A stretch of DNA of 64,000 nucleotides, taken from sequence record LC739539.1, one strand, 5' to 3'. Every line of letters begins with the position of its first letter. Within the stretch, counting starts at the first letter, position 1. The notes beneath the pieces are model-generated. The model did not search any database. It saw nothing but the letters and a program-made list of their open reading frames with translations, and had not been told where the DNA came from. Origin of the DNA: Escherichia phage phiWec190. Positions 36,191 to 49,843 of the stretch are shown piece after piece. The position numbers were made by a program, and so were the translations under genes.

Positions 36191-36213
36191 CACAACTAAG
36201 AGAGATTATCATC

Positions 36214-36486: not shown

Positions 36487-36496
36487 GGGGGCTAAC

Positions 36497-36757
36497 GTGC
36501 ACTTTCTTAAGGTATGCGGGAAGATCATAGCCTTTCGTAATGAGGAATTTTATAACCTTGCTCGTTATGTTATGATCTACCCTGGCAAGGTATATAAAAA
36601 CAGTCCGACAAGTTACACTATTTACAATGTGCTATCAGGTAAAACCACGGAGATCATAAAAGGAGGGGTGAGAGATTATCGTACATCTTTCTATCCTTGC
36701 CGTGATTCCGCCAGCTTATTTTTTGTGTGTGAAATGATTGTTAAAAGGGGTGTATAA
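36497..36757 (+). CDS. hypothetical protein (86 aa, GTG start)
   Basis: ORF track; RBS AAGGGGG. Confidence 0.45.
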   Translation: MHFLKVCGKIIAFRNEEFYNLARYVMIYPGKVYKNSPTSYTIYNVLSGKTTEIIKGGVRDYRTSFYPCRDSASLFFVCEMIVKRGV

Positions 36758-37314: not shown

Positions 37315-37368
37315 CAGGTAAAACGTGATCACTTATAGTTAACTCATAGGGCGGCAACGGTGCCGCTC
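37311..37368 (+). promoter_or_regulatory. cassette promoter plus leader stem-loop (copy 3)
   Basis: TTGACA 37311-16, 17 nt, TATAGT 37334-39, leader CATAGGGCGGCAACGGTGCCGCTCACAAC. Confidence 0.6.
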
Positions 37369-37388
37369 ACAACCGAAAGGATAGAAAA

Positions 37389-37472
37389 ATGTTTACTACT
37401 TCCCTGTTTTTTGCAATCAATTTTATTCCTGGTTTCCGTGCTGCACTTGAAATCATTCTTTGGACACTGTAA
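37389..37472 (+). CDS. micro-ORF hydrophobic peptide (27 aa)
   Basis: Hand-read MFTTSLFFAINFIPGFRAALEIILWTL right after leader and RBS AAAGGA; not in track. Confidence 0.4.
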   Translation: MFTTSLFFAINFIPGFRAALEIILWTL

Positions 37473-37479
37473 GGAAAAC

Positions 37480-37590
37480 ATGATGATCAAGAAAGAAAAC
37501 AGTTTGACAGTTGGAACGATTAACGCTATTATCTTGGTTGTTCCATTTTGGATCACCGTAGCAGTTATCACAACAATCATTTTCAAGTAA
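37480..37590 (+). CDS. micro-ORF membrane peptide (36 aa)
   Basis: MMIKKENSLTVGTINAIILVVPFWITVAVITTIIFK; in-frame tail of track ORF 37360..37590, whose annotated start lies inside the stem-loop. Confidence 0.4.
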   Translation: MMIKKENSLTVGTINAIILVVPFWITVAVITTIIFK

Positions 37591-37600
37591 GGGGCACACC

Positions 37601-37792
37601 ATGTTTAAAAATATCACTGGCAACGTAGCAACATTGAAAGCAGGTGACAAGGTAGAATTGCACCGGATCACAATGACAGTAGCGCACATTGAAAAAGTGC
37701 CACCGCATCACCGCAAGATCTCGCTAACTTGCAACAAGGGGCGTAACATTACCGCCACATTGCACGAAAAAGATAACGTAGTCATTCTATAA
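37601..37792 (+). CDS. small hypothetical protein (63 aa)
   Basis: ORF track; RBS AAGGGG. Confidence 0.45.
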   Translation: MFKNITGNVATLKAGDKVELHRITMTVAHIEKVPPHHRKISLTCNKGRNITATLHEKDNVVIL

Positions 37793-37802
37793 GGCGGACA
37801 CT

Positions 37803-38084
37803 ATGAGCAAGGTAATTAGTCACGAAAAACTAAGCCCTACCCTATCGATCAGTGAATGCAACGATGGTTATTGGCTATACGATGAAACGCGCGGCATGAA
37901 TTTATCGATGCAAGCGAAAACCGAACAAGCGGCATATGTGCAAGCCCTGGAATATTACCAGCGACGACTACAGGAAGTTGAGAACAATTATAAAAGCCTG
38001 AAATCAAAGGTTGATCACTTTATCAGCCAGGCGGCAGATGACGACGATGATCACTATTGCGAGCGGTGCGGATCATACAGTTAA
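37803..38084 (+). CDS. small hypothetical protein (93 aa)
   Basis: ORF track; C-terminal CERCGS. Confidence 0.45.
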   Translation: MSKVISHEKLSPTLSISECNDGYWLYDETRGMNLSMQAKTEQAAYVQALEYYQRRLQEVENNYKSLKSKVDHFISQAADDDDDHYCERCGSYS

Positions 38085-38092
38085 AAATATCC

Positions 38093-38154
38093 TTGACAAC
38101 GTTTCAAAAAGTAGTAAGCTGTATCACATAGGGCGGCGGAATGGTCCACCGCTC
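38093..38154 (+). promoter_or_regulatory. cassette promoter plus leader stem-loop (copy 4)
   Basis: TTGACA 38093-98, TAAGCT, leader CACATAGGGCGGCGGAATGGTCCACCGCTC. Confidence 0.55.
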
Positions 38155-38174
38155 AAAACAGAAGAGAGAATATC

Positions 38175-38420
38175 ATGAAACACTTATCATCTATCACCAA
38201 TCACAATGAAATCTTTGTTAATGAAAAAGGTTACGCCTGGATTCAGTTAAAAGAGATGAAAAATAACCGTCGTGTAACGGTTGTTCGTAAAATTAAAAGC
38301 AAGCCTTTTAGTAACTTCTCGATTGATACCGTGCGGATCAAGAATGAAGAATACTTGATCGATAGCCAAATCACTTGGAGCTTAACGGCATCAGCCGCCG
38401 CACCATATTTCGCAAACTAA
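38175..38420 (+). CDS. small hypothetical protein (81 aa)
   Basis: ORF track. Confidence 0.5.
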   Translation: MKHLSSITNHNEIFVNEKGYAWIQLKEMKNNRRVTVVRKIKSKPFSNFSIDTVRIKNEEYLIDSQITWSLTASAAAPYFAN

Positions 38421-38431
38421 GAAAAAAACGT

Positions 38432-38488
38432 TTGACACTGTTTAAAATTCTGTTATAGTTTATCACGTAGGGCGGCAATGGTGCCGCC
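38432..38488 (+). promoter_or_regulatory. cassette promoter plus leader stem-loop (copy 5)
   Basis: TTGACA 38432-37, 16 nt, TATAGT, leader CACGTAGGGCGGCAATGGTGCCGCC. Confidence 0.6.
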
Positions 38489-38509
38489 AACAATAAAAAG
38501 GTTATCATC

Positions 38510-38689
38510 ATGGCTATCATTGCAAAAACTGAAATCGTGGGCTTAGATTCCATTCTTCTGACATATAAGGAAACGTTAGGAATGTATGTAGTAACCTATG
38601 GGGATTATGTGCATGAATACGAATATATTGATCTTGCTTTCGAATGTTACATTCGTCAGGTCAATCAAGCCTATAATGATTATCGTTAA
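38510..38689 (+). CDS. small hypothetical protein (59 aa, not in track)
   Basis: Hand-read MAIIAKTEIVGLDSILLTYKETLGMYVV... Confidence 0.4.
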   Translation: MAIIAKTEIVGLDSILLTYKETLGMYVVTYGDYVHEYEYIDLAFECYIRQVNQAYNDYR

Positions 38690-38708
38690 AAGTTTTAGTC
38701 TTGTGCTA

Positions 38709-38761
38709 TTGACAATAGGCGATAGTACAAGCATAATAACTTTTATCGGGAATACTTCCCA
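38709..38761 (+). promoter_or_regulatory. cassette promoter with variant leader hairpin (copy 6)
   Basis: TTGACA 38709-14, 17 nt, CATAAT 38732-37, hairpin GGGAA-TAC-TTCCC. Confidence 0.5.
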
Positions 38762-38786
38762 CTAACCAAAAAGAGAGAGTAAGAAC

Positions 38787-39152
38787 ATGGCTAAAAATAT
38801 CAATGTGTCCGCTTATGCTACCCTGGCTAACACTGCTAAAATCGAACTATCCAGCATTGAAGCAGTGCACATTAGCGCCCGTCGCTGGTTTCAACAGTCC
38901 TACGGTAATACATATTTTTCTTTAAGTGTGGACGTCGAGATCTGCGGTAAATTGATTGAAGTGGTTAACGTTCCGTTTCAATATGGCTATGGTGATCATT
39001 TTGATACCGTCGCCCTGGAAGAATTTAGCAAGGTTATCAACCTTGAAGGCAAAGAATTTTCACGCGGCAGCTATCTTTCCCGTTTTTGCCGTGACAATGG
39101 GATCGCTGTATACAGTCATGCAAGCGATGTTAAGCGTAAAAAAGATTTATAA
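38787..39152 (+). CDS. hypothetical protein (121 aa)
   Basis: ORF track. Confidence 0.5.
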   Translation: MAKNINVSAYATLANTAKIELSSIEAVHISARRWFQQSYGNTYFSLSVDVEICGKLIEVVNVPFQYGYGDHFDTVALEEFSKVINLEGKEFSRGSYLSRFCRDNGIAVYSHASDVKRKKDL

Positions 39153-39158
39153 AAGACG

Positions 39159-39220
39159 TTGACAGCACGAATAAAAAGAGTAAACTGTATTACATAGGGC
39201 GCGGGAATAGTTCCCGCCCC
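39159..39220 (+). promoter_or_regulatory. cassette promoter plus leader stem-loop (copy 7)
   Basis: TTGACA 39159-64, 16 nt, TAAACT, leader ACATAGGGCGCGGGAATAGTTCCCGCCCC. Confidence 0.6.
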
Positions 39221-39241
39221 ACTCAAAGAGAGATTAACATC

Positions 39242-39481
39242 ATGGCTAAATCAAAAATGTTCTTAGGTCACAAAAATAAAAATCATTGGAATGTAAGCCT
39301 TTGGATTAACAACGATGAATCATTGTATCGGTTGGCCCTGGACTTTATTAACGATAGCACTAATCGCAATGATGCGGCCCGTCATATGATGCTATTTTTA
39401 CAAGAGACTGGACAAGATAAGACTCCAGACGGTTTCAAATATAGCACTACTGCGATCCGCGCCGCGATGGTCGGAATGTAA
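39242..39481 (+). CDS. small hypothetical protein (79 aa)
   Basis: ORF track. Confidence 0.5.
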   Translation: MAKSKMFLGHKNKNHWNVSLWINNDESLYRLALDFINDSTNRNDAARHMMLFLQETGQDKTPDGFKYSTTAIRAAMVGM

Positions 39482-39490
39482 TAAAAACAG

Positions 39491-39548
39491 TTGACAACGT
39501 TTTAAATTAGTGTAAGATGTATCACATAGGGGCGACAAGCGCCCCGCC
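39491..39548 (+). promoter_or_regulatory. cassette promoter plus leader stem-loop (copy 8)
   Basis: TTGACA 39491-96, 16 nt, TAAGAT, leader CACATAGGGGCGACAAGCGCCCCGCC. Confidence 0.6.
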
Positions 39549-39568
39549 TAACAGAAGAGAGAAAAATC

Positions 39569-39796
39569 ATGGCTATCAATATTGTTCGCGTATCCGGCAC
39601 CGTTGGCACTTCCCAGGTTATAGCCGTTGTAACAAATAAAAAGATTAATGATGTATGTGAGATCTTGAATAAGTGGGCTATTGCTAATTTTGGGGAATAT
39701 GCGAGCGTTGAGTACATCGAATCTTATCAGGTGCCAACCATCAGCCTGACCGATCTCAACGTTGATCGCCTGTTATGCCTGGACGAATTAATCTGA
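39569..39796 (+). CDS. small hypothetical protein (75 aa)
   Basis: ORF track. Confidence 0.5.
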   Translation: MAINIVRVSGTVGTSQVIAVVTNKKINDVCEILNKWAIANFGEYASVEYIESYQVPTISLTDLNVDRLLCLDELI

Positions 39797-39805
39797 AAAA
39801 GATTG

Positions 39806-39862
39806 TTGACACGGGAAAGAAAAAGAGTAAACTGTATTACGTAGGGCGGCAATGGTGCCGCC
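39806..39862 (+). promoter_or_regulatory. cassette promoter plus leader stem-loop (copy 9)
   Basis: TTGACA 39806-11, 16 nt, TAAACT, leader ACGTAGGGCGGCAATGGTGCCGCC. Confidence 0.6.
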
Positions 39863-39881
39863 AGCAAGAAGAGAGATTATC

Positions 39882-40097
39882 ATGATGGCTAATATCCGCA
39901 CACTGTTAAAAAATGCAAGTCGAGTTTTATTTTCCGATCACGATTATTTCAATAAAGACATTACAGGCGTTAAGAACATCAAAGATGTAAAAAGTGTTAT
40001 GGGTATATATTGCAATGTGAAACGTGTTGGAACTTTTAGCAACAAGGTAGTATATCAGGCAGGGGATTACAATTTTACACTAACAATCTTAAATTAA
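39882..40097 (+). CDS. small hypothetical protein (71 aa)
   Basis: Track ORF trimmed to MMANIRT... after leader. Confidence 0.45.
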   Translation: MMANIRTLLKNASRVLFSDHDYFNKDITGVKNIKDVKSVMGIYCNVKRVGTFSNKVVYQAGDYNFTLTILN

Positions 40098-40100
40098 AGC

Positions 40101-40162
40101 TTGCAATCCCCATAAAATAAAGTAAACTGTATTACATCAAGGCGGCGGAATGGTCCACCGCC
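40101..40162 (+). promoter_or_regulatory. cassette promoter plus leader stem-loop (copy 10)
   Basis: TTGCAA 40101-06, 16 nt, TAAACT, leader ACATCAAGGCGGCGGAATGGTCCACCGCC. Confidence 0.55.
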
Positions 40163-40186
40163 TAACAAAGAGAAGAGGAAAACATC

Positions 40187-40354
40187 ATGATTACTTTTAC
40201 TACCCGTGAAGCCGCTCGCAACGTTGCACGTAAAGTTAACGCCGCCAACCTGGGCGCTACGCTTAAAGCCCCTGTAAAAGATACATCAGGCGCGTGGATC
40301 TTCCCTGGTCTGCGTCATGCTGATAACTTGGGCACGTTAAGCCGTAACAAATAA
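40187..40354 (+). CDS. small basic protein (55 aa, not in track)
   Basis: Hand-read MITFTTREAARNVARKVNAANLGATLKAPVKDTSGAWIFPGLRHADNLGTLSRNK. Confidence 0.4.
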   Translation: MITFTTREAARNVARKVNAANLGATLKAPVKDTSGAWIFPGLRHADNLGTLSRNK

Positions 40355-40368
40355 GGTTAGCCCTTCGT

Positions 40369-40396
40369 AATAGCGCCCCGCTCAATAGGCGCTATT
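40369..40396 (+). other. intercistronic 9-bp-stem hairpin
   Basis: AATAGCGCC-CCGCTCAATA-GGCGCTATT, immediately upstream of RBS for 40435. Confidence 0.45.
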
Positions 40397-40434
40397 GAGA
40401 AGAGAAACCACTTATCACAAAGAGAGAAAACATC

Positions 40435-40656
40435 ATGATCACTTTCGCTATTGTCGCCGTTGTCGCTGGTCAAGTTTACGTGAACGATACATTCACCACC
40501 GAAGACAAAGCAGCAGGAGATATCACCGCCGCTTATAACGAGTGCAAGGAAGTAGGAAGGATGTTAGCGCCTTGCTTCCTTATGAGTGAACGCCAGGACG
40601 GGATCACGGTGTTTACTAACATTGAAACAGGATATCAAATGATAGTAGAAAAATGA
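40435..40656 (+). CDS. small hypothetical protein (73 aa)
   Basis: ORF track. Confidence 0.45.
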   Translation: MITFAIVAVVAGQVYVNDTFTTEDKAAGDITAAYNECKEVGRMLAPCFLMSERQDGITVFTNIETGYQMIVEK

Positions 40657-40718
40657 TTGACAAGTTTTAAAAATCCGGTAAGATGTAACACGTAGGGCGG
40701 CAATGGTGCCGCTCACAA
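40656..40718 (+). promoter_or_regulatory. cassette promoter plus leader stem-loop (copy 11)
   Basis: TTGACA 40656-61, 16 nt, TAAGAT, leader ACACGTAGGGCGGCAATGGTGCCGCTCACAAC. Confidence 0.6.
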
Positions 40719-40733
40719 CAGAAGAGAGACACC

Positions 40734-41087
40734 ATGAAAGCACAAAATGCAATTAAACTTTATATTCTGGCCTCAATTGATTATAGCGAGTATAGCATCA
40801 CAGAAGAGAAAGAGAAGATCGCGGAATTGATGCGACGTTTTAAGAATGAGTACTGGTATCCCTATAACCAAGAATACTACAATCATAACGTTATCAGAGC
40901 AATAGCCTCATGGTTACAAGGTTTACCGTCAGATATCAATATCGCTTTCGAATATTGGGAAGTAGATCGGTTGTTAACATCCTGGGGATACATTAGCGAG
41001 CGTAGCAGCGAAAGCAAGATCCAGAAAGAAAGGGAAAACTATTGGCTATACCTTGCAGGAGTGATCCTTGCACTTTCCCACGAATAA
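40734..41087 (+). CDS. hypothetical protein (117 aa)
   Basis: ORF track. Confidence 0.5.
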   Translation: MKAQNAIKLYILASIDYSEYSITEEKEKIAELMRRFKNEYWYPYNQEYYNHNVIRAIASWLQGLPSDINIAFEYWEVDRLLTSWGYISERSSESKIQKERENYWLYLAGVILALSHE

Positions 41088-41103
41088 AAAGTTTTAAAAG
41101 TAG

Positions 41104-41165
41104 TTGACAGGCATCAAACAATAAAGTAAATTTAAACACGTAGGGCGGCAATGGTGCCGCTCACA
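41104..41165 (+). promoter_or_regulatory. cassette promoter plus leader stem-loop (copy 12)
   Basis: TTGACA 41104-09, TAAATT, leader ACACGTAGGGCGGCAATGGTGCCGCTCACAAC. Confidence 0.55.
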
Positions 41166-41183
41166 ACAAAAAGAGGAAACATC

Positions 41184-41330
41184 ATGAATACATCTAATCG
41201 CGCCGAAAAAATCCAATCTTCCAAAACTCGCGCAGCGTGGAATGAAGAAGTGGTCCGCAAGGGCGACAAGCGCAACAAGACTAAGCGCGACCGCACCGAT
41301 AAACGTGCATGGCTGGACCTGGAAGACTAA
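41184..41330 (+). CDS. small highly basic protein (48 aa, not in track)
   Basis: Hand-read MNTSNRAEKIQSSKTRAAWNEEVVRKGDKRNKTKRDRTDKRAWLDLED. Confidence 0.4.
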   Translation: MNTSNRAEKIQSSKTRAAWNEEVVRKGDKRNKTKRDRTDKRAWLDLED

Positions 41331-41338
41331 CAAAACAA

Positions 41339-41361
41339 GGGCGCAAATAGCGCCCTTTCTT
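41339..41361 (+). terminator. rho-independent terminator
   Basis: GGGCGC-AAATA-GCGCCC then TTTCTT. Confidence 0.6.
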
Positions 41362-41386
41362 ATATCTAACGAGAGGATAACAGCAC

Positions 41387-41572
41387 ATGACCTTAAACGA
41401 GATTAAAACCGCCTACAACGCAACGAACAAAGTAGCAGCCCGTTACCGCGACGAATACGGATTTATTGCGCAAGGCGTGATCCTGGGCTTATCTAATGAT
41501 GGTTTGATTTACATTGATGCTTATCATAACCAGGTTAAACCTGAAAATGTTATCAGTATAAAATATCTTTAA
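41387..41572 (+). CDS. small hypothetical protein (61 aa)
   Basis: ORF track; RBS GAGAGGA. Confidence 0.45.
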   Translation: MTLNEIKTAYNATNKVAARYRDEYGFIAQGVILGLSNDGLIYIDAYHNQVKPENVISIKYL

Positions 41573-41578
41573 AAGTGG

Positions 41579-41638
41579 TTGACACCATAATCAGACCTGA
41601 TAAGATGTATCACGTAGGGCGGCAATGGTACCGCGCTC
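41579..41638 (+). promoter_or_regulatory. cassette promoter plus leader stem-loop (copy 13)
   Basis: TTGACA 41579-84, 16 nt, TAAGAT, leader CACGTAGGGCGGCAATGGTACCGCGCTC. Confidence 0.55.
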
Positions 41639-41654
41639 GTTTGAGGATCAAACT

Positions 41655-41939
41655 ATGGTTAAAGCTAACACGGTGCTACTGTTTTCCCTGGTTAATGATG
41701 CCGCTTACTTGTCCAACATGACGCAAGATGATAGCACATTAACGGCAACGTTTACCGATGGACTTAACCGAGTGATCATCGTTTCACTGAAAACAGGGAG
41801 TAAAGGCTTTTACTCGTTGGCTTATCATTGGGTAACAGACAGCGACGAGACAAGCCAGGACTATAGCGCCCCGTTCCCTGAATCAATGGCACGGGAGATC
41901 ATCGCCGCCGTTGTAAACGATGGTTTATTTACTGCATAA
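41655..41939 (+). CDS. hypothetical protein (94 aa)
   Basis: Track ORF trimmed to MVKANTV... Confidence 0.45.
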   Translation: MVKANTVLLFSLVNDAAYLSNMTQDDSTLTATFTDGLNRVIIVSLKTGSKGFYSLAYHWVTDSDETSQDYSAPFPESMAREIIAAVVNDGLFTA

Positions 41940-41958
41940 AAATAATTTAGAAAAAGGT

Positions 41959-42020
41959 TTGCAATCATTTTGAGATAGTGTATATTTAATTCATAGGGCG
42001 GCGGGAATAGTTCCCAAAGC
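41959..42020 (+). promoter_or_regulatory. cassette promoter plus leader stem-loop (copy 14)
   Basis: TTGCAA 41959-64, 16 nt, TATATT, leader CATAGGGCGGCGGGAATAGTTCCC. Confidence 0.5.
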
Positions 42021-42038
42021 AAGCGAGAGGATAACACA

Positions 42039-42158
42039 ATGAACAAATACACAGTAGAATACACGGTAGAGAATCCGGCAGTATCCGAAGGGCGTAAGAC
42101 TACGATCGCCGTTGGTGTTATCGCTTTCGTTATCACTATCTTATCAATCATCTTATAA
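42039..42158 (+). CDS. micro-ORF membrane peptide (39 aa)
   Basis: Hand-read MNKYTVEYTVENPAVSEGRKTTIAVGVIAFVITILSIIL; C-terminal TM helix. Confidence 0.4.
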   Translation: MNKYTVEYTVENPAVSEGRKTTIAVGVIAFVITILSIIL

Positions 42159-42168
42159 GGTGCACACC

Positions 42169-42348
42169 ATGAAAACAGTAAACGTTATCAGATCATCAAA
42201 CATCATTAAAGAGATCGCCCTTGCCACTGGTATTGAGATCGAGGAAGTGATCGCGCTCAATCTTACAGAAAACGATCTGCGCAACTATGAAGCGGAAAGC
42301 GTGAAAGCAAGTGGCGCGGTCCTGGCATATAATCCGGCTAACAAATAG
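42169..42348 (+). CDS. small hypothetical protein (59 aa)
   Basis: In-frame tail of track ORF 42112..42348 from MKTVNV... Confidence 0.4.
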   Translation: MKTVNVIRSSNIIKEIALATGIEIEEVIALNLTENDLRNYEAESVKASGAVLAYNPANK

Positions 42349-42408
42349 TTTGACAAGCTGAATCAACCTGATAAGATGTATCACATAGGGGCGACAAGCG
42401 CCCCGCCT
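42349..42408 (+). promoter_or_regulatory. cassette promoter plus leader stem-loop (copy 15)
   Basis: TTGACA 42349-54, 17 nt, TAAGAT, leader CACATAGGGGCGACAAGCGCCCCGCC. Confidence 0.6.
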
Positions 42409-42428
42409 AACAGAAGAGAGAAAAAATC

Positions 42429-42707
42429 ATGACCATCGTTAAATTAACAACCGAAGAAATGAAAACAATGTTAACCACTAATTTACAAAATTGGAAAATT
42501 GGTGTTGACGTTGAAACAGTGTGCAAGTTGAACGACAAACTAACACCGGACGACATTGAAACGATCATCCGTGCAGATTTCTATGATGCTTTATACGATG
42601 ATTCCACAGTCCTTGAAACGATGTTGGATAACGCTTGGATCAATCCCGATTTGGCGGCTTATGGTCATCTTGCCTTTGAAGCCATCCATAATGTTTATAA
42701 TCGTTAA
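42429..42707 (+). CDS. hypothetical protein (92 aa)
   Basis: ORF track. Confidence 0.5.
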   Translation: MTIVKLTTEEMKTMLTTNLQNWKIGVDVETVCKLNDKLTPDDIETIIRADFYDALYDDSTVLETMLDNAWINPDLAAYGHLAFEAIHNVYNR

Positions 42708-42717
42708 GGGGGATAAC

Positions 42718-42849
42718 ATGAATCCGAAAGATATGCAAGCATGGAAAGGGTACGACGATCTAAGCGCCTTGCGCAATAAGTCAAGCCGTAACCTTAGACG
42801 GTTGGAAGCAAAGAAAAAGAAAAATATTAAGGGGGTGCACCATGTATAA
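42718..42849 (+). CDS. small basic protein (43 aa)
   Basis: In-frame tail of track ORF 42556..42849 from MNPKDMQAWKGY..., RBS AAGGGGG. Confidence 0.35.
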   Translation: MNPKDMQAWKGYDDLSALRNKSSRNLRRLEAKKKKNIKGVHHV

Positions 42850-43069
42850 CAATATCATTGCAGATCGTGCCGCTACTATTCGCCCAGGAGATCGGGCGCG
42901 TTTACAGGTTGGCGTTTATCCGTTCCCGTCTTATGACTTCTGCAAGGTAACGGCTATCGAAAACAATCCGTTTGATCCTGACACCGTGATCATCTGGTAC
43001 GAAGGAAGGGGAAACAGATATGAAGATATCTTGGGGCGTGATGAATCCGTAAACATTTTACGCTATTAA
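42842..43069 (+). CDS. small hypothetical protein (75 aa)
   Basis: ORF track. Confidence 0.45.
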   Translation: MYNNIIADRAATIRPGDRARLQVGVYPFPSYDFCKVTAIENNPFDPDTVIIWYEGRGNRYEDILGRDESVNILRY

Positions 43070-43202
43070 CAGCCTGTAAGCTGTACGGCTGTATTACAGC
43101 CTAAAAGGTGTAAGGCAATGCAATCCCCTACCTGATTTAATTAGTGCGCCCTGGCTTATACTGGGGCGTTATACATTGTAGAAAATAATTTTAAAAATAT
43201 GC

Positions 43203-43263
43203 TTGACGCCTGGAACGTTGGCGCGTATAGTTTATCACATAGGGCGGCGGAATGGTCCACCGC
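43203..43263 (+). promoter_or_regulatory. cassette promoter plus leader stem-loop (copy 16)
   Basis: TTGACG 43203-08, 17 nt, TATAGT, leader CACATAGGGCGGCGGAATGGTCCACCGC. Confidence 0.6.
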
Positions 43264-43283
43264 AAAACAGAAGAGAAAACATC

Positions 43284-43469
43284 ATGACTACTTACAAGAA
43301 AACGAAAGAATTGGTAAAAGGCGATCTGGTTAGAAATATCCTGAATGGTAAGTTTTATGCAATGGTATCTATTGAACGTTATCAAACTGGTTACATTGTT
43401 AAACTTGATAGTCGTGACGATGGTTGCGAGTTTTACACTGAATATAATGATCGTCACATAGTCAAATAA
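43284..43469 (+). CDS. small hypothetical protein (61 aa)
   Basis: Track ORF trimmed to MTTYKKT... Confidence 0.45.
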   Translation: MTTYKKTKELVKGDLVRNILNGKFYAMVSIERYQTGYIVKLDSRDDGCEFYTEYNDRHIVK

Positions 43470-43480
43470 ACCATAAACCA

Positions 43481-43497
43481 GGGGCGACAAGCGCCCC
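43481..43497 (+). other. intercistronic hairpin GGGGCG-ACAAG-CGCCCC
   Basis: Same hairpin as in leaders of copies 8 and 15, here without a promoter. Confidence 0.45.
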
Positions 43498-43517
43498 ATA
43501 ACAAGAAAGGTAACAAG

Positions 43518-43700
43518 ATGAAAAAGATTGATTCTTCCCGTGTATTGTGTGAAATTGATGTTATCATCGGCAACGGCACCGGACACCATAAACTGATTAA
43601 GGGTAAGGCTTATCGCCTGGCAACGCTCAAAGCAGATATGCGCCTAACAGCAAGCCAGATCAAAAAGTTTTTTCGCCCCTTGTTGACAACAGCAAAGTAA
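43518..43700 (+). CDS. small basic protein (60 aa)
   Basis: ORF track. Confidence 0.45.
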   Translation: MKKIDSSRVLCEIDVIIGNGTGHHKLIKGKAYRLATLKADMRLTASQIKKFFRPLLTTAK

Positions 43701-43740
43701 GCGCGTAGTATTCATCTTGTAGGGCGGCAATGGTGCCGCC
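43683..43740 (+). promoter_or_regulatory. cassette promoter plus leader stem-loop (copy 17)
   Basis: TTGACA 43683-88 (inside 3' end of previous gene), 17 nt, TAGTAT, leader TTGTAGGGCGGCAATGGTGCCGCC. Confidence 0.55.
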
Positions 43741-43758
43741 GATGGTGAGGGTAATATA

Positions 43759-43896
43759 ATGAAAACTTTCAATGCAACAGCCTCGACAATTGGTTATATT
43801 ATTACAGTGCAAGCCGTGGACCTGGTAGCAGCAGCAAACAAGATTAAAAGAATGATCCCGCCAGGTAGTGAATTTTCCGTTTGGGAAGTAAAATAA
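43759..43896 (+). CDS. small hypothetical protein (45 aa, not in track)
   Basis: Hand-read MKTFNATASTIGYIITVQAVDLVAAANKIKRMIPPGSEFSVWEVK. Confidence 0.4.
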   Translation: MKTFNATASTIGYIITVQAVDLVAAANKIKRMIPPGSEFSVWEVK

Positions 43897-43898
43897 AT

Positions 43899-43961
43899 CT
43901 TGACAGTATTTTGTTTTCTGGTAAAGTGTATCACGTAGGGCGGGGCAATAAGGCAACGCCC
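43899..43961 (+). promoter_or_regulatory. cassette promoter plus leader stem-loop (copy 18)
   Basis: TTGACA 43899-904, 16 nt, TAAAGT, leader CACGTAGGGCGGGGCAATAAGGCAACGCCC. Confidence 0.55.
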
Positions 43962-43979
43962 ATTAAAGAGGGTAGCATC

Positions 43980-44084
43980 ATGTTAGAGAAAATTTTCACG
44001 GTTGCAATAGTTGGCCTGGCGTTATCGGTTGGAGTGGTTGCAACTATGGCTAATATGATCCTATCTTCTCACGGTATCGGTTAA
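43980..44084 (+). CDS. micro-ORF membrane peptide (34 aa)
   Basis: In-frame tail of track ORF 43881..44084: MLEKIFTVAIVGLALSVGVVATMANMILSSHGIG. Confidence 0.4.
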   Translation: MLEKIFTVAIVGLALSVGVVATMANMILSSHGIG

Positions 44085-44094
44085 GGTGAAACAA

Positions 44095-44310
44095 ATGTTC
44101 ACGAACAAAGCAGGCAAAACGGAATTTTTACGCGGCTTACAAGTTGGTAAGCCTGAGATCTGGCATTGCAGCAAGTCCGCACATAACGAAATGAAAGACT
44201 TTACCGCATCGTTGCAACGTGTTAAAATAACTATCACGCAGAAAAAAGCCCTGATAGTGGCAGAAAACGAGATCCCACAGACCATTATCATAATTGAGCG
44301 CACATCATAA
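44095..44310 (+). CDS. small hypothetical protein (71 aa)
   Basis: Track ORF 44086..44310; ATG at 44095 has AAGGTG RBS. Confidence 0.45.
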   Translation: MFTNKAGKTEFLRGLQVGKPEIWHCSKSAHNEMKDFTASLQRVKITITQKKALIVAENEIPQTIIIIERTS

Positions 44311-44325
44311 TTTTATTTATATTGA

Positions 44326-44387
44326 ATAAATAGTATTGACACAGATCACCAGTGTGATAATATTTACCACGTAGGGCGGCAATGGTG
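44326..44387 (+). promoter_or_regulatory. cassette promoter plus leader stem-loop (copy 19)
   Basis: TTGACA 44326-31, 16 nt, TAATAT, leader ACCACGTAGGGCGGCAATGGTGCCGCTCACC. Confidence 0.6.
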
Positions 44388-44412
44388 CCGCTCACCATTT
44401 GGAGTTATAACC

Positions 44413-44814
44413 ATGAACATTACGATCCTTTCTTATACTGACGTTGTTAACATTGCTAAAACTTTCGGCGCTGAAGCCCTGAAATATGCGGTTTCCAATG
44501 GTAATCTGACAAAGGAACAATGCTACCTGATTGGAGGCTGTAAACGTTGGGCGGTGTCTCGCAACATTGAGATCGAAAACGTCAACGATGGCAACACTGA
44601 ATATAGTGTTGATGCCGTTTTCCAGTCGGTTGATTTAGGCGGGATCTATAACACTAATCTGAATGATGTGCGTATCGTTCGCACTGGTTTCGGTGCTTAT
44701 GATGTACCAGTCCGCGAAGCTATGGAGAAAGGTTATATTAATCCGACCATTTTAAATATGATCATGACTGAGACTAAACAGCGTAACGATGCACGGGCTA
44801 TCTTGGGCCTGTAA
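44413..44814 (+). CDS. hypothetical protein (133 aa)
   Basis: ORF track. Confidence 0.5.
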   Translation: MNITILSYTDVVNIAKTFGAEALKYAVSNGNLTKEQCYLIGGCKRWAVSRNIEIENVNDGNTEYSVDAVFQSVDLGGIYNTNLNDVRIVRTGFGAYDVPVREAMEKGYINPTILNMIMTETKQRNDARAILGL

Positions 44815-44834
44815 GTAAAAACTCCAAAAAACTA

Positions 44835-44896
44835 TTGACACGGATCGTCAATATGATAATATTTACCACGTAGGGCGGGAATAGTTCCCGCTTCCT
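44835..44896 (+). promoter_or_regulatory. cassette promoter plus leader stem-loop (copy 20; near-duplicate of copy 19)
   Basis: TTGACA 44835-40, 16 nt, TAATAT, leader ACCACGTAGGGCGGGAATAGTTCCCGC. Confidence 0.6.
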
Positions 44897-44914
44897 GGAA
44901 AAAGGTAAAACATC

Positions 44915-45160
44915 ATGTACCAGACAACTAAAATTGGCAATATCTACCACGACCCGAAAAATTCGCGCGGTATGGCTTGGATCAAAATGCCTAACAACAT
45001 TTGGTATTATGCGTTAAAAGGGAATACTTTGATGGGTAATCGTTGGACCTGGATCAAAGAGAATAACAACATTATCAACGATGAAAAAATCAGCGAAATG
45101 GTAGCAACAGGTAAGGTTGTAAAGGAAGAAAACACCGATCGCGTAACGCGTCAATTCTAA
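44915..45160 (+). CDS. small hypothetical protein (81 aa)
   Basis: ORF track. Confidence 0.5.
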   Translation: MYQTTKIGNIYHDPKNSRGMAWIKMPNNIWYYALKGNTLMGNRWTWIKENNNIINDEKISEMVATGKVVKEENTDRVTRQF

Positions 45161-45163
45161 AAA

Positions 45164-45178
45164 GGGCGGCAACGCCCC
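45164..45178 (+). other. intercistronic hairpin with GCAA tetraloop
   Basis: GGGCG-GCAA-CGCCC between stop of 44915..45160 and RBS of 45200. Confidence 0.45.
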
Positions 45179-45199
45179 ACTATCAGAAAGGAAAAGATT

Positions 45200-45424
45200 A
45201 TGAGTATTGTTAGAATGTTACAAGCTATTAAACTGGCTGAATTGTCGGATCTCAAGGTAGAAATAACTGAATATGATTATGGGGATCTAAGCGTGCATAT
45301 CTTCCCGCTTCCAGTTGATGGCGCTTATGCCTGGTGCTATGCTGATAACTTCCCGCCGGATGACACAAAGGGCGTAACTGACTTTATTTTAAAGTCGATA
45401 GTAGAAAACAGCCAACGTAATTAA
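45200..45424 (+). CDS. small hypothetical protein (74 aa)
   Basis: ORF track. Confidence 0.45.
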   Translation: MSIVRMLQAIKLAELSDLKVEITEYDYGDLSVHIFPLPVDGAYAWCYADNFPPDDTKGVTDFILKSIVENSQRN

Positions 45425-45429
45425 TCAGC

Positions 45430-45445
45430 GGGGCGGCAACGCCCC
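45430..45445 (+). other. intercistronic hairpin with GCAA tetraloop
   Basis: GGGGCG-GCAA-CGCCCC upstream of 45476. Confidence 0.45.
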
Positions 45446-45475
45446 ATTAAACGCAATAGGAAGAGGATAGACAAC

Positions 45476-45766
45476 ATGAAAAAGATGATCGCAGTAGTTG
45501 CCCTGGTTGTTGGTATTAACGCGCCTGTAATGGCTAACGATTTGCCTGAATCGATCACGTTAACCGATATCAACGCAGTAAACCGGATCGGGGTTAATTA
45601 TCGCCTATGCCTTGCCGCTAAAACTTTTAAGGACGGGGAAACAGAATACCACGGATTCGAGGGTGTCCGGTGCGGTGAGCTTGCACGCGACCTTAAGGAA
45701 GATCCAGACCTTGAGGCCATACCGATGACCGTAAACGGTAAAGCTTACGTAAACCGCCAACAATGA
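45476..45766 (+). CDS. secreted/periplasmic protein (96 aa)
   Basis: Signal peptide MKKMIAVVALVVGINAPVMA. Confidence 0.5.
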   Translation: MKKMIAVVALVVGINAPVMANDLPESITLTDINAVNRIGVNYRLCLAAKTFKDGETEYHGFEGVRCGELARDLKEDPDLEAIPMTVNGKAYVNRQQ

Positions 45767-45777
45767 GAAAGGTAATC

Positions 45778-45897
45778 ATGACAATGGGGATCATAGTAGC
45801 AACGCTGGCGCTAATCCCCTTCCTGGTTAAATATGTGCTAATCGGTGTTGTTCTGGTAGTCAGTGACCTATTGGAAACGGTTGGCACCTGGTTTTAA
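45778..45897 (+). CDS. micro-ORF membrane peptide (39 aa, not in track)
   Basis: Hand-read MTMGIIVATLALIPFLVKYVLIGVVLVVSDLLETVGTWF. Confidence 0.4.
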   Translation: MTMGIIVATLALIPFLVKYVLIGVVLVVSDLLETVGTWF

Positions 45898-45909
45898 GGA
45901 GTAATAAAA

Positions 45910-46101
45910 ATGAATGCAGAACAAGTTAGAAAGGTATTAGCAGCGTTGCGTTATCACAACCATAGCAAGGTAAAGAATGATCCTGATTATGTGGATTCAA
46001 GCCTGGAAGAAGACACATTGCAAGCTATAAGCCATATGCAGGAATTGCTTAAGCGTATGACAGAGAAGAACAGATCTGATTATATAGGTGACGAAGTATA
46101 A
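45910..46101 (+). CDS. small hypothetical protein (63 aa)
   Basis: ORF track. Confidence 0.45.
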   Translation: MNAEQVRKVLAALRYHNHSKVKNDPDYVDSSLEEDTLQAISHMQELLKRMTEKNRSDYIGDEV

Positions 46102-46105
46102 AATA

Positions 46106-46168
46106 GCTTGCATGATGTGCCGGATAGTGTAAGATGTATTTCGTAGGGCGGCAATGGTGCCGCTCACA
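46106..46168 (+). promoter_or_regulatory. cassette promoter plus leader stem-loop (copy 21)
   Basis: TTGCAT 46106-11, 16 nt, TAAGAT, leader TCGTAGGGCGGCAATGGTGCCGCTCACAAC. Confidence 0.6.
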
Positions 46169-46186
46169 ACTGGAAGGAAAAACACC

Positions 46187-46390
46187 ATGACTACAGCTAA
46201 CCGCCTGATCGCCGTCCTGAATAAAGCAAAGGCTAACCGCCTGGATGTTCAAATCAAAGAGCAAGCAAATGGCGAGATCCTTGCTACGGTGTCCGATGGC
46301 GGTTATGTATCGGAATCATTTTTATCAGGGAGCTTAGATCATCTTGTTTGGAAATTAGAAATTATCGTGGAGGATATGCAGATCATCTAA
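46187..46390 (+). CDS. small hypothetical protein (67 aa)
   Basis: Track ORF trimmed to MTTANRL... Confidence 0.45.
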   Translation: MTTANRLIAVLNKAKANRLDVQIKEQANGEILATVSDGGYVSESFLSGSLDHLVWKLEIIVEDMQII

Positions 46391-46400
46391 TCTTTACAAA

Positions 46401-46430
46401 ACAGGGCTTGTTTTTGTCCTGTTTTTTGTT
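46401..46430 (+). terminator. rho-independent terminator
   Basis: ACAGGG-CTTGTTTTTG-TCCTGT then TTTTTT. Confidence 0.55.
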
Positions 46431-46564
46431 ATGCTTATTGAACGGGCGGCACTGGCAACGGGGGAGGTAATCACCGGACGACCCCGCTATATATTGATAG
46501 CTAACACCTATCAAACAACAAAACATCAAAGAGATAAACTATCAAATCTTTACAATTCTACCTA

Positions 46565-46623
46565 TTGACACCGGATCACGCTTATATTATTATTTATCAC
46601 GTAGGGCGGGAATGTTTCCCGTC
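46565..46623 (+). promoter_or_regulatory. cassette promoter plus leader stem-loop (copy 22)
   Basis: TTGACA 46565-70, about 17 nt, TATTAT, leader CACGTAGGGCGGGAATGTTTCCCG. Confidence 0.55.
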
Positions 46624-47461: not shown

Positions 47462-47881
47462 ATGAACATTAAATCAAATAATCCAGCTTACTCCTTCGAC
47501 AACGCTTTTTGTCACGGTAGCGCCGCTAAAGGCTTCGAAATTGATGGTAAACTGGTTATCGTGAACGTTGACGGGGAAGAGGTTGCAGTATATCCGGTGG
47601 CAGACGTTAAAAGCCGTTTACAATGCCGCATGGATGTTACCGCGTATCAGCTTGATCCGATCCGTGTAGTTGCCCTGGTCCTGGAAGAAGAGATCAAAGC
47701 AATGCATCATAGCAATAAGTTTATTGGTGACGCGCAGGACAATATGAAAGTATGCCGCAGTAAAGTTAACGAAGCATTGAAAGAATGCGGTTTTAAGGAT
47801 CTGATGATTAAACGTGATGAAAAATTCCGCTTTCGTAATGACCTGGCGAACCGGATATACTCAATCTATGAAGCTTTATAA
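47462..47881 (+). CDS. hypothetical protein (139 aa), last gene of array
   Basis: ORF track. Confidence 0.5.
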   Translation: MNIKSNNPAYSFDNAFCHGSAAKGFEIDGKLVIVNVDGEEVAVYPVADVKSRLQCRMDVTAYQLDPIRVVALVLEEEIKAMHHSNKFIGDAQDNMKVCRSKVNEALKECGFKDLMIKRDEKFRFRNDLANRIYSIYEAL

Positions 47882-47896
47882 TCGACAACAAAACAA

Positions 47897-47924
47897 GGGG
47901 CGCACTAAGCGCCCTTTCTTTTTG
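47897..47924 (+). terminator. strong rho-independent terminator closing the array
   Basis: GGGGCGC-ACTAA-GCGCCC then TTTCTTTTTG. Confidence 0.7.
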
Positions 47925-48039
47925 TCCAAATAATGTTGATAGCTTCCGCCTATGAAAAACCGACACAGAACAAAAATGAATAAATCGCGGTATCGAGCTA
48001 ATCAACCAGCAAACGAATAACCATACCTCCCAGGGCAAC

Positions 48040-48420
48040 AGGCTGTTAGAGAGCTATTTAGAGCGGTTAAAATCGATCAACAACCAACAACAAACAACCG
48101 AAAAAGGCTGTTTTCCTCCTTTCCAGTGCAATGATAACCATTATCATCTAACCTTGCGTATCTATGCAATATAAGTGCATAACTATAATGTTGATAATAG
48201 TTCGCAACAACTAACCAACCAACAACCTAAAACAATAAGCAAACTAATCATAATCAAAGGAATAATAGAAAGATGATTGATAACGACAAACAATCAAACC
48301 ATGATGAATACTAAGCAAGATAACGATAACACGACAAAACAACCAACTAACTAACGATAACAAATGAAATCATTAAAATAACAACTATTAGTAAAATAGT
48401 GCCTATTGCCGAAATAGTGA
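48040..48420. repeat. A+C-rich, G-poor low-complexity tract with CAACAA/ACGATAAC-type short repeats
   Basis: Read directly: strong strand compositional skew, no plausible ORF. Confidence 0.5.
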
Positions 48421-48463
48421 AGACTGTAATAATTGTAAAATGAATCATTCCAAGCCTCATCAT

Positions 48464-48496
48464 TAGCACGCTACGCCGGACACGTAGCGAGCTAAT
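48464..48496. repeat. 13-bp-arm hairpin/palindrome
   Basis: TTAGCACGCTACG-CCGGACA-CGTAGCGAGCTAA (one mismatch). Confidence 0.5.
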
Positions 48497-48560
48497 AATA
48501 AGCCAACTACACCCCCACAATCATAACTATCGGTGATAGTTATTTCTTGTGATTATGTAG

Positions 48561-48577
48561 CTTGCAATTATTGCAAG
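48561..48577. repeat. perfect 17-bp palindrome CTTGCAATTATTGCAAG
   Basis: Read directly. Confidence 0.55.
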
Positions 48578-48655
48578 CGTATTACGCTTACACTAATTAC
48601 GCTGGCTTATTATTAGCATTGTATGTAAGAATAGTTAAGCGTAATATAATAATCA

Positions 48656-48670
48656 ATGTAATTATTACAT
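48656..48670. repeat. perfect 15-bp palindrome ATGTAATTATTACAT
   Basis: Read directly. Confidence 0.55.
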
Positions 48671-48913
48671 GAGTTATCACTATCGTTCAGTGTGATCATC
48701 ATTAGCATGGTGAAGGATTAGCACGTAGCAACATGAGCGAATAGCGACAGGTTGCATAGTGTACAGATATACAGAAAGATGAAAGATAAAGGCTTAATGT
48801 TTGCGGGGGAAAGATAGCCGCCTATGGCGGATATGTTGAGCACGTTCTCTTAAACGTAAATAAAATCAGAAAAATCTTGATTTATTGGTCGATTTGTTGT
48901 AAGAATTGTCTGA

Positions 48914-48932
48914 ATAATAATCATTCTCATTT
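48914..48932. repeat. Fur-box-like palindrome copy
   Basis: AATAATAATCATTCTCATT, same unit as 35011-35210 array. Confidence 0.5.
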
Positions 48933-49083
48933 ATTTTATAGGTAGTCTGTTATGGGCGGCACCTTTACACCGTAGTAATCATATGTTTAGGTTGTTAAGT
49001 AGTTGATTGATAAAGGATTGTTTAAAAAGTAGTGCTTAAGTTAGGCCCAACCTTATAGCAGGGGAAAAGATCGCCTAAGTTAT

Positions 49084-49116
49084 TGAATGCGAATGATAAT
49101 GATAATTATTCTCATT
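49084..49116. repeat. Fur-box-like palindrome copy
   Basis: GAATGCGAATGATAATGATAATTATTCTCATTG. Confidence 0.5.
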
Positions 49117-49462
49117 GATATTTGAAGATTCCGGCGCGCAGAAGTGGAGGGGCCGGAAAATTCGCGTTCAGCAGTCCTGACGTACTCGCCATAAATCCTT
49201 GCTACCAAAGGCTTTTCTGTCTCTTTGCCGATGATATTCTTGCCGATAAATCGCAGGAACAGAGGGTATCGAAATAATCTCTCCCCCCAGATATTTTGCC
49301 GATTAATATTTGACCAAAGGGGTGTCAAAAATAACAGGTATATATGGAATAATTGATAGGGAATACCAATGATAAATGAATTGTAATTGCCGAGGATTGA
49401 TCGTAAGATGTTCCTCGTTGAGAGTTACGATGTTTGTCATGAAACCAAGAGAGGAGATTATC

Positions 49463-49843
49463 ATGCAAGAGAGTAAAAATGTTCCGTTGAGTAGTCCAAT
49501 GTTGTTAGCCTTCTATGAAAGTTGGCTTGCTGATCATCATACCAAAGAGCGCACAAGGAATGGGTTATGTGTATGCTTGGATACCTTTATCTGGGATGAG
49601 ATGTGGGACCGTAATTTCAGTGAGGAACAGGCAAAACAGCTTTGTGCCATAAGTGATGCAACATTAAAAGAAATGAAGAAACAATTCCGTTGCGCAGGAT
49701 TGTCTGTCAGTGTTCCCTTTAATGTGAACTACGAAGAATATGTGCGAGAGTATAACCACAGCAGAGCGCATGAAAACAAGCTTCGTGTAGAGTGGGTGCA
49801 AGAACGAGTGAAAGATTGTTTGCATAATCGTAAAGGAGCCTGA
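49463..49843 (+). CDS. paralogous small-protein family X, member 1
   Basis: Track ORF trimmed to MQESKNV... (RBS AGAGAGGAG); motifs FY..W...NGLCVCL, VPFN, LRVEWV. Confidence 0.55.
   Translation: MQESKNVPLSSPMLLAFYESWLADHHTKERTRNGLCVCLDTFIWDEMWDRNFSEEQAKQLCAISDATLKEMKKQFRCAGLSVSVPFNVNYEEYVREYNHSRAHENKLRVEWVQERVKDCLHNRKGA

Follow-up and report, generated by a model that had tools for sequence, protein, structure and literature searches.

A conserved gene-free gap in a phAPEC8/phi92-like Escherichia phage as the probable genome-end junction, with a covarying structured element and an iterated palindrome family

A gap without genes at positions 47925-49462 of a 64,000-nucleotide stretch of Escherichia phage phiWec190 (LC739539.1; the whole stretch is called the window) was analysed in this study. 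Our analysis suggests that this region is probably the concatemer junction of a phage packaging unit-length genomes with short direct terminal repeats (DTRs), with a 331-bp segment as the predicted repeat and a single-copy structured core of ~170 nt (48452..48623) located 216 bp upstream of it. The window segment is 100% identical to Escherichia phage phiWec188 (LC739537.1), and the source phage is a phAPEC8/phi92-like myovirus of the Stephanstirmvirinae. BLAST comparison revealed that the 1.5-kb gap is ~80% identical across more than 100 phAPEC8/phi92-like genomes. The homologous gap is without genes in the curated annotations of phAPEC8 and ASO2A; in these two and in the annotation of Schickermooser a terminator is found at the left border and no feature follows until the next gene. 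The conservation profile was taken from an alignment of 16 genomes, and repeat edges and palindromes were surveyed in 25 sequences from at least five lineages, metagenomic sequences included.

The segment at 48839..49169, with its left physical end placed at 48839 and its right physical end at 49169 by homology, is very likely the terminal repeat, present as a single copy because the assembly collapsed the two virion copies. Phi92 annotates a 343-bp DTR at both ends of its record, and this DTR aligns end to end with 48839-49169. The record of Schickermooser has an exact 329-bp prefix that is also its suffix, with the same first and last bases as the window repeat; the terminal repeat of this phage is given as 328 bp in the literature (PMC6563267). 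For the phi92-like phage BME3 a DTR of 342 bp was reported using PhageTerm (PMC12210895). Seven records from two laboratories (WPEC1, WPEC2, WPEC4, WPEC6 and three SA_NWU records) have the counterpart of 48839 as their very first base, the SA_NWU paper giving no criterion for its record starts, and two records (Schickermooser and BI-EHEC) end at 49168. A first-pass annotation, made from the window alone, had named a terminal-repeat boundary or packaging site among several candidate functions of this gap. Results from this study bear out that candidate: both DTR edges are present, as mapped by homology to determined ends and by the exact starts and ends of records.

Analysis of the 25 sequences revealed the left-edge consensus TGTTG^AGCac.TCTC.TAAA and the right-edge consensus TCGCGTTA^AGCACtTCT, where the caret marks the boundary. 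The two edges are 329-412 bp apart in these sequences and 331 bp apart in the window, where they read TGTTG^AGC (48834-48841) and CGCGTTC^AGC (49163-49172). The motif GTTR^AGCAC(n)TCT is common to both repeat boundaries, as expected if one nuclease recognises both. In most lineages a G-run, a hairpin of 5-8 bp and (A/T)TGTTG precede the cut site. In the window this left-edge unit (48804..48838) is composed of the G-run GCGGGGG, a hairpin at 48818-48830 (CCGCC TAT GGCGG) and ATATGTTG up to the cut site. The edge hairpin stays in the same place, but its sequence is wholly different between lineages (examples are ATCGCGTAGCGAT, CCGCCACAGGCGG and ACCCTGATAAGGGT). The unit is iterated two to three times in five sequences (TSP7_1, L020, L021, L027 and L035) and is absent from the phi92 group.

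The phiWec188 record has identical first and last 148 bp (ends L039 and L040), and this overlap starts inside a coding sequence (CDS); it is thus a circular-assembly artefact, the true repeat being internal. The paper describing the phiWec phages states that their genomes "terminate with direct terminal repeats" (PMC12695924). This statement does not locate the true repeat, which is internal, single-copy and unannotated in the phiWec188 record. Around window position 20,900 the window passes over the point where the two ends of that record meet. Records of phiWec188 and of many related phages were opened at arbitrary points, and their real ends appear to lie inside an unannotated gap. The true ends matter for genome maps, for comparative alignments and for the engineering of broad-host-range therapeutic phages. 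As a repeat, the segment is ordinary and represents the known Stephanstirmvirinae DTR type.

Comparison of the 16 genomes revealed that alignment identity at 47900-48625 (0.85-0.95) is the highest of the alignment and exceeds that of the repeat (0.4-0.9). Islands aligning in every lineage were found at 47898-47993, 48443-48620 and 49076-49173, along with short blocks at about 48046-48077 and 48321-48375. Most genes of these phages are less conserved than the DNA flanking the repeat, which has nonetheless gone undescribed; the literature found on these phages contains no description of the core, of the flanking conserved DNA or of the palindromes discussed below.

Consistent with the first-pass annotation, no credible open reading frame (ORF) was identified in 47925-49462: the longest has 82 amino acids (aa) and none is conserved as coding sequence. 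The minus strand is G/T-rich and contains open frames of 30-57 aa with hydrophobic products, and the automated annotation of PsgM04F places several tiny ORFs in the gap. These frames could be taken as genes for small hydrophobic peptides of the membrane or type I toxin kind, for example the 33-aa MIHFTIITVFTISAIGTILLIVVILMISFVIVS with GAGG 6 nt before its ATG. However, in phAPEC8-type phages a 17-nt indel changes the register of the 33-aa frame, and an unrelated peptide results. Stop codons crowd every frame in the phi92 group, and orf30, orf41 and orf82 are interrupted within Phapecoctavirus. Variable sites in 48040-48395 number 59 and are spread 21/22/16 over the three codon positions, without periodicity (p=0.59), and synonymous to non-synonymous changes number 4:7 and 5:11. 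Two overlapping frames open at the same time are expected from composition alone. Peptide genes on the minus strand are effectively refuted by these frame, stop-codon and periodicity tests, and we regard a coding function as extremely improbable. Searches of the genes flanking the gap against Pfam and PHROGs gave no informative matches.

Alignment of 17 distinct sequences of the core, from Phapecoctavirus, the phiWec group, Justusliebigvirus, Klebsiella phages and metagenomes, revealed a fold of seven helices. RNAalifold recovered four of them: H1 (48469-75/48483-89), a 7-bp hairpin with the near-invariant loop CCGGACA; P1 (48491-505/48603-17), a long-range helix of 15 bp; H2 (48523-31/48535-43), a 9-bp hairpin; and H3 (48560-67/48571-78), an invariant hairpin of 8 bp. 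Helices P2 (48508-11/48556-59) and P2b (48516-20/48547-51) were suggested by the minus-strand fold and H4 (~48579-81/48598-600) by inspection. Taken together, the seven helices have 51 pairs, with 94.9% of cells paired and 16 pairs changed on both sides. Covariation in the core is 0.232, compared to 0.073 in column shuffles (0/500 reach the observed value) and at most 0.045 with slid partners. With a covariance model, every genome in which the element is complete gave a single match of 168-201 bits, and the copy truncated by a contig end gave 151 bits. The model found no second copy in the window and none in the rV5-like contigs or the T5-like locus searched. The core is present in every Stephanstirmvirinae lineage sampled, and no conserved structure was found elsewhere within the gap (alifold 0 to -10 kcal/mol).

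Symmetric and iterated elements picked out by the first-pass annotation coincide in part with this core. The hairpin it described has arms at 48463-48475/48483-48495 that match at 12/13 positions, and its family (I6) extends to 20-nt arms at 85%. The palindrome CTTGCAATTATTGCAAG at 48561-48577 is perfect, with a stem that is invariant in all relatives. The recurring ATTAGCA was found at 48461, 48612, 48700 and 48717, the first two copies being arms of conserved helices. The other palindrome, ATGTAATTATTACAT at 48656..48670, is likewise perfect, though not conserved; it is lineage-specific and lies within a variable, indel-rich spacer (48620-48800), where alignment identity is 0.17-0.7 and gaps are frequent. 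Two further observations were made on the core. An imperfect hairpin (48566-48581/48583-48598) competes with H3 and H4 and appears in single-sequence folds. By eye, the H3 loop base 48569 and position 48595 change together (T/A to A/T) in phAPEC8-type phages, which hints at an alternative or tertiary pairing.

Both strands of the core fold much more stably than shuffled sequences, with z-scores of -7.6 (plus) and -8.8 (minus) as RNA and of -7.9 and -9.2 on the two strands with DNA parameters. Analysis of a 39-pair core structure (663 cells) on the plus strand revealed one G.T and seven A.C cells, the substitutions being almost purely from one Watson-Crick pair to another. Such near-pure Watson-Crick covariation fits a structure at the DNA level equally well. 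We put a DNA-level role of the core in cis at not quite an even chance. The main rival is that the core is a structured non-coding RNA (ncRNA) of a new class, an explanation that we lean against and that leaves the DTR assignment unaffected. Its most likely transcript would be a leftward, minus-strand one starting in or close to the repeat. The G-depleted tract at 48040-48420 could then be the unstructured tail of this RNA; with transcription of the plus strand it would instead suit a Rho-loading region (C>G).

In line with an ncRNA, the fold has several helices, a long-range one that closes it, and 16 pairs with compensatory changes. The minus strand folds better (alifold -59.1 against -46.9 for the plus strand, besides the z-scores), and on that strand the seven A.C cells of the plus strand would become G.U. 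In 16/16 sequences a leftward promoter-like site (49126-49099, TTCAAA-16-TATCAT) keeps its position. The H4 series CGTAA/TTACG to CGTAA/TTGCG to CGCAA/TTGCG passes through a wobble, as RNA helices often do, its U.G intermediate being on the plus strand. Against an ncRNA, wobble pairs are very rare (~1% of cells) and point to opposite strands in two helices, H2 favouring the minus and H4 the plus strand; strand assignment through wobble asymmetry was rejected on account of these conflicting signals.

Comparison with known RNA families also counts against this explanation. A search of the whole window against Rfam 15 gave no matches at gathering thresholds, and a permissive search of 47800-49600 gave matches at chance level only (E >= 0.09, at most 21 bits compared to thresholds of 49-87). 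No tRNA or tmRNA was found. On neither strand is the core framed by a conserved terminator or by a conserved promoter that reaches 10/12, and the promoter/leader unit of the early gene array, with 12 copies in the window, has none in this region. The candidate ncRNA locus of the first-pass annotation is narrowed to 48452-48623, which shows the strong covariation though not the framing signals. Scanning reference bacterial and archaeal genomes with the core pattern gave 0 matches, which shows that the core does not belong to the hosts or prophages of that set; of the 11 pattern matches in metagenomes, three (L028, L031 and L037) represent chance. Present at a fixed distance from the cut, the core is a candidate for the repeat-duplication step in large-myovirus packaging, or for a new phage RNA.

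Under the concatemer-junction reading, the virion genome would start at 48839 and end at 49169, with the 331-bp segment at both ends. On the left side of the repeat, the right genome end would have a gene-free stretch of ~915 bp (terminator, island, tract, core, spacer and edge unit), and ~290 bp of leader would separate the repeat from the first left-end gene. The terminase would recognise GTTR^AGCAC(n)TCT and cut one strand at each edge of the single concatemer repeat. Strand-displacement synthesis would then duplicate the repeat, a step of the kind proposed for T7-type phages. The edge hairpin and the core may act in cis on transiently single-stranded right-end DNA during processing or end replication, and the two palindromes inside the repeat may bind a dimeric protein, host Fur or another factor, that marks or organises the ends. 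How the DNA is cleaved, what the structure does and which protein binds the palindromes are inferences in this scheme.

Several points weigh against the concatemer-junction reading. The termini proposed for this phage rest on homology to its relatives, as does the duplication of the repeat, of which the window carries a single copy. The right edge in the window is CGCGTTC^AGCAG, compared to CGCGTTA^AGCAC in the family. The model of cleavage and strand displacement is borrowed from T7. The phi92 group is without the edge hairpin, indicating that this hairpin is not universally required. The core is 216 bp away from the cut site, not obviously within the reach of a terminase, and it could equally be an RNA.

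Analysis of the Fur-box-like sites revealed that they are members of an iterated 7-1-7 palindrome family, TGAnAATnATTnTCA, with the full half-site GAATGAGAAT. Three copies are present in the gap and were scored against the E. coli Fur consensus GATAATGATAATCATTATC. Copy 1 (48132..48146, TGATAACCATTATCA) overlaps a 19-mer (48127-48145) that matches the consensus at 15/19; it is invariant in Phapecoctavirus and is represented by AATGATAATCATTCTTAT in the phi92 group. Copy 2 (48915..48929, TAATAATCATTCTCA) lies 76 nt inside the left DTR edge, and its 19-mer (48910-48928) matches at 14/19. Copy 3 (49095..49114, with TGATAATTATTCTCA at 49100-49114) lies 55-70 nt inside the right DTR edge, in the most conserved part of the repeat (49076-49173), and its 19-mer (49095-49113) matches at 17/19. 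All 25 sequences have a family copy 72-172 nt (mostly 76 nt) inside the left edge and another 55-70 nt inside the right edge. Two of these matches (14/19 and 17/19) had been read accurately in the first-pass annotation, which missed the third (15/19); its label of Fur boxes gives way to a broader phage palindrome family.

Matches to the Fur consensus with at most three mismatches number four in the whole window (0.04 expected), and sites with at most five mismatches number five in the region (0.15 expected). Phi92 has sites of 17/19 and 16/19 at homologous places. Judged by sequence, Fur is the closest known specificity for these palindromes. If they were genuine Fur boxes, host Fur would bind at the phage ends and at an array near 35 kb, with iron-responsive early transcription or an architectural or protective function as the outcome; from the sequence we consider this unlikely. 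The matches listed above, the 7-1-7 palindromic architecture, and a distance of one base per half-site from the 7-1-7 reading of the Fur box, TGATAATnATTATCA, are in favour of Fur. The presence of the family in T5-like and rV5-like enterobacterial phages fits a shared host factor, and copy 3 overlaps the conserved leftward promoter-like site (49126-49099). However, the family consensus is GAGAAT/ATTCTC and not GATAAT/ATTATC, and this alters the TAAT core that is common to Fur-family boxes. In addition, the half-site reaches beyond a Fur box, to GAATGAGAAT, and no clear promoters accompany the arrays in which copies are found. The promoter-like sites overlapping the boxes, 49126-49099 on the minus strand and 48120-48147 on the plus strand, are weak, at 8-9/12.

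The occurrence of the palindrome family in unrelated enterobacterial phages, rV5-like and T5-like phages among them, suggests a host protein as the binder. The sequence GTTGAATGCGAATGATAATGAT is common to the window and to the T5-like phage Seafire near its repeat boundary; copies in Seafire are 30-85 bp from the predicted inner terminal-repeat boundary. In T5, copies were found at 9658 and 9693, inside the annotated injection stop signal. A joint reading, which we hold tentatively and at somewhat less than even probability, is that the palindromes bind one host factor exploited by unrelated phages and that the core represents a new class of structured element. In this joint reading, and with the same tentativeness, the core would be either a new ncRNA or a single-stranded DNA fold with a part in terminal-repeat duplication, end replication or packaging.

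A second gene-free stretch of the window, at 34560-35232, contains about seven palindromes of the same family at 34990-35215, spaced 20-60 bp; examples are TGAGAATTATTCTCA at 35014, TGATAATGATTCTCA at 35054 and TGATAATCATTCTCA at 35194. Matches of at least 11/12 number 11 in the window, compared to 2.2 expected, and 8/11 belong to the family (three in the gap and five at 34990-35215). The stretch is bordered on one side by a NADAR-domain gene and on the other by the long array of small early genes, which starts there. Segments of it have matches in 381 phage records, those of T5-like, rV5-like, Cronobacter, Pectobacterium and Erwinia phages among them. The array at 34990-35215 is a candidate operator or iteron array, possibly an origin. 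The gene beside it (34031-34558, plus strand) encodes a 175-aa protein with a NADAR domain (PF08719, E 4.7e-34); some related records annotate its counterpart as GTP cyclohydrolase II.

The G-poor, A/C-rich tract noted in the first-pass annotation is indeed present at 48040..48420 on the plus strand, with 13.1% G, 44.9% A, 19.4% C and 22.6% T. It has the fourth lowest G content among 3181 overlapping 380-nt windows (mean 0.212, sd 0.036), and the lowest of the 64 kb (0.116, starting at 48081) lies inside it. Despite diverged sequence, the phi92 group keeps the G-depletion (7.6-7.8% G), suggesting that the constraint acts on composition. The tract appears unstructured: at 48250-48460 alifold gave no consensus pairs on either strand. 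Located beside a folding element, it would suit a role as single-stranded DNA since neither strand can self-pair through G-C. The reiterations of CAACAA and ACGATAAC that had been described here are present, though as weak repeat families only (D2, D3, D6 and D9). Phi92-group loci (L007 ~3480-3600; L009; L019 1370-1431) have a 100-140 bp insertion at the counterpart of 48395-48425, composed of tandem units of ~16 nt (CAGTAATCATTKCATA) and annotated as 'repeat_region' in arall, inny and muut.

The tract and the palindromes would also be the main elements of a replication origin, the function placed first in the first-pass annotation: the palindromes would serve as iterons, the AT-rich tract would unwind and the core would act as a single-strand priming signal. 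In agreement with this, the region has three palindrome copies, a tract of 65-68% A+T that is strand-asymmetric and conserved in composition where its sequence is not, and a strongly folding element that resembles single-strand initiation signals. However, neither the palindromes nor the AT-rich tract are specific to origins. The cumulative GC skew has its minimum at ~30 kb and merely pauses at 48-49 kb, with no inflection; DnaA boxes (TTWTNCACA) number four in the whole window, compared to 8.7 expected, and none is present in 47925-49460; and the denser palindrome array at 34990-35215 is a better iteron candidate. The missing skew inflection and DnaA box leave the proposed origin without support, and we consider an origin in this region improbable. 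At ~29,000-31,000 the GC skew flips from about -0.1 to +0.2, with the cumulative minimum, coinciding with a switch from minus-strand to plus-strand genes (a point of divergent transcription).

Analysis of the remaining parts of the gap identified a bidirectional intrinsic terminator at its left border (47895..47927, both strands), with the stem AAGGGGCGC/GCGCCCTTT and a T-run. The array of small early genes upstream ends with this terminator, which every lineage has conserved. It is followed by a conserved non-coding island (47925..47993), ATGTTGATAGCTTCCGCCTATGAAAAACCGACACAGAAC...GGTATCGAGCTAATC, that aligns in every lineage, metagenomic ones included, at 75-78% identity (0.82-0.94 in the 16-sequence alignment); its ATG-led ORF of 22 aa is lost in the phi92 group. 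At the other side of the repeat, the left-end leader (49170..49462, plus strand) contains a conserved block (49325-49375) and the Shine-Dalgarno (SD) sequence AGAGGAG (49450-56) ahead of the ATG at 49463. A candidate rightward promoter at 49324-49353 (GTCAAA-18-AATAAT, TG-extended) has its site in 16/16 sequences, with 8/12 consensus matches. Sigma-70 promoters at homologous positions reach 8-9/12 only, which is chance level for AT-rich DNA. Promoter-like matches overall are at chance (eight found, 7.3 expected), and terminator-like matches number four compared to 1.0 expected.

A search for related loci in IMG/VR through the upstream gene found three only, two of which are rV5-like phages. 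These two contigs (L004 and L005, 137-141 kb) carry a homologue of the upstream gene with 80-84% nucleotide and 91-93% protein identity, together with its terminator. After the terminator they have a different gene-free sequence, with no structured core and no edge motifs. The rV5 paper displays a box marked 'non-coding'. This box and the stretch in the two contigs may represent an analogous, non-homologous junction.

Records OR584014.1, MG0656xx and OP562383.1 are 80-94% identical to this coliphage group across the region. They are deposited with other host labels (Pseudomonas phage PsgM04F; Campylobacter phages B15, A145, A110a and A142; Acinetobacter phage ABPW7), and these Pseudomonas, Campylobacter and Acinetobacter labels look doubtful.

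The small-gene array upstream of the gap contains twelve copies (seven exact) of the 20-mer GTAGGGCGGCAATGGTGCCG at 35884-46601 on the plus strand, called a PHIRE promoter in the phAPEC8 annotation. In phAPEC8, promoters of the sigma-70 type (TTGACAC...) directly precede this 20-mer, whose sequence includes a stem of 5 bp, CGGCA/TGCCG. Its position and stem make it look like a shared 5' leader hairpin of early transcripts rather than a promoter. Exact direct duplications of at least 30 bp were found in the same array at 39513/42372 and 40687/41135, at least some of which are repeated promoter/leader units.

Comparison with known systems places the repeat closest to the DTRs of phi92, Schickermooser and BME3, with which it shares homologous sequence, edge motifs, similar length and a place between the last small-gene array and the first left-end gene. 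It differs from them in being unannotated and inside the record in phiWec188 and in two substitutions at its right edge. Structured elements next to linear genome ends are known from the phi29 pRNA and from the T-shaped terminal hairpins of parvoviruses and adeno-associated virus (AAV). The core resembles these in form only, as a structured element of ~150-175 nt beside a linear genome end, and its long closing stem encloses smaller internal palindromes, as in the AAV inverted terminal repeat (ITR). In contrast to these elements, the core has no match in Rfam and lies 216 bp inside unique DNA rather than at the extreme end; moreover, the family to which this phage belongs packages with a terminase, which is not known to use an RNA.

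In the T7/T3 concatemer junction the terminal repeat is flanked by packaging signals, and a hairpin intermediate has been proposed for duplication of the repeat. Like that junction, the gap described here has a DTR no longer than a few hundred bp, and the flanks of the DTR lack genes and contain short iterated motifs. In both, the right genome end carries an inverted repeat on the left side of the DTR, and each junction has one DTR copy that must be duplicated. The two systems have no sequence similarity, and a large myovirus with promoters of the host RNA polymerase (RNAP) type differs from a T7-like podovirus with its own RNA polymerase. Unlike a simple hairpin, the core is branched and multi-helix, and its link to processing is drawn here by analogy.

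The third system is T5, in which Repeat Region 3, a conserved untranslated repeat region at the injection stop signal, has an unexplained mechanism (bioRxiv 10.1101/866236). This region lies at the inner end of a 10-kb terminal repeat. It differs from the gap in having paired DnaA boxes in inverted-repeat modules (25 T5-like phages), of which 47925-49460 has none. Furthermore, the T5 repeat is ~10 kb and gene-encoding, two-step injection belongs to T5, and the core is absent from the T5-like locus searched. Both regions are large, conserved, gene-free and palindrome-rich and lie at a terminal-repeat boundary, and the palindrome family TGAnAATnATTnTCA is the only sequence feature common to them. 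These shared palindromes tie the junction to the long-unexplained injection-stop region of T5 and suggest a common interaction with a host factor.

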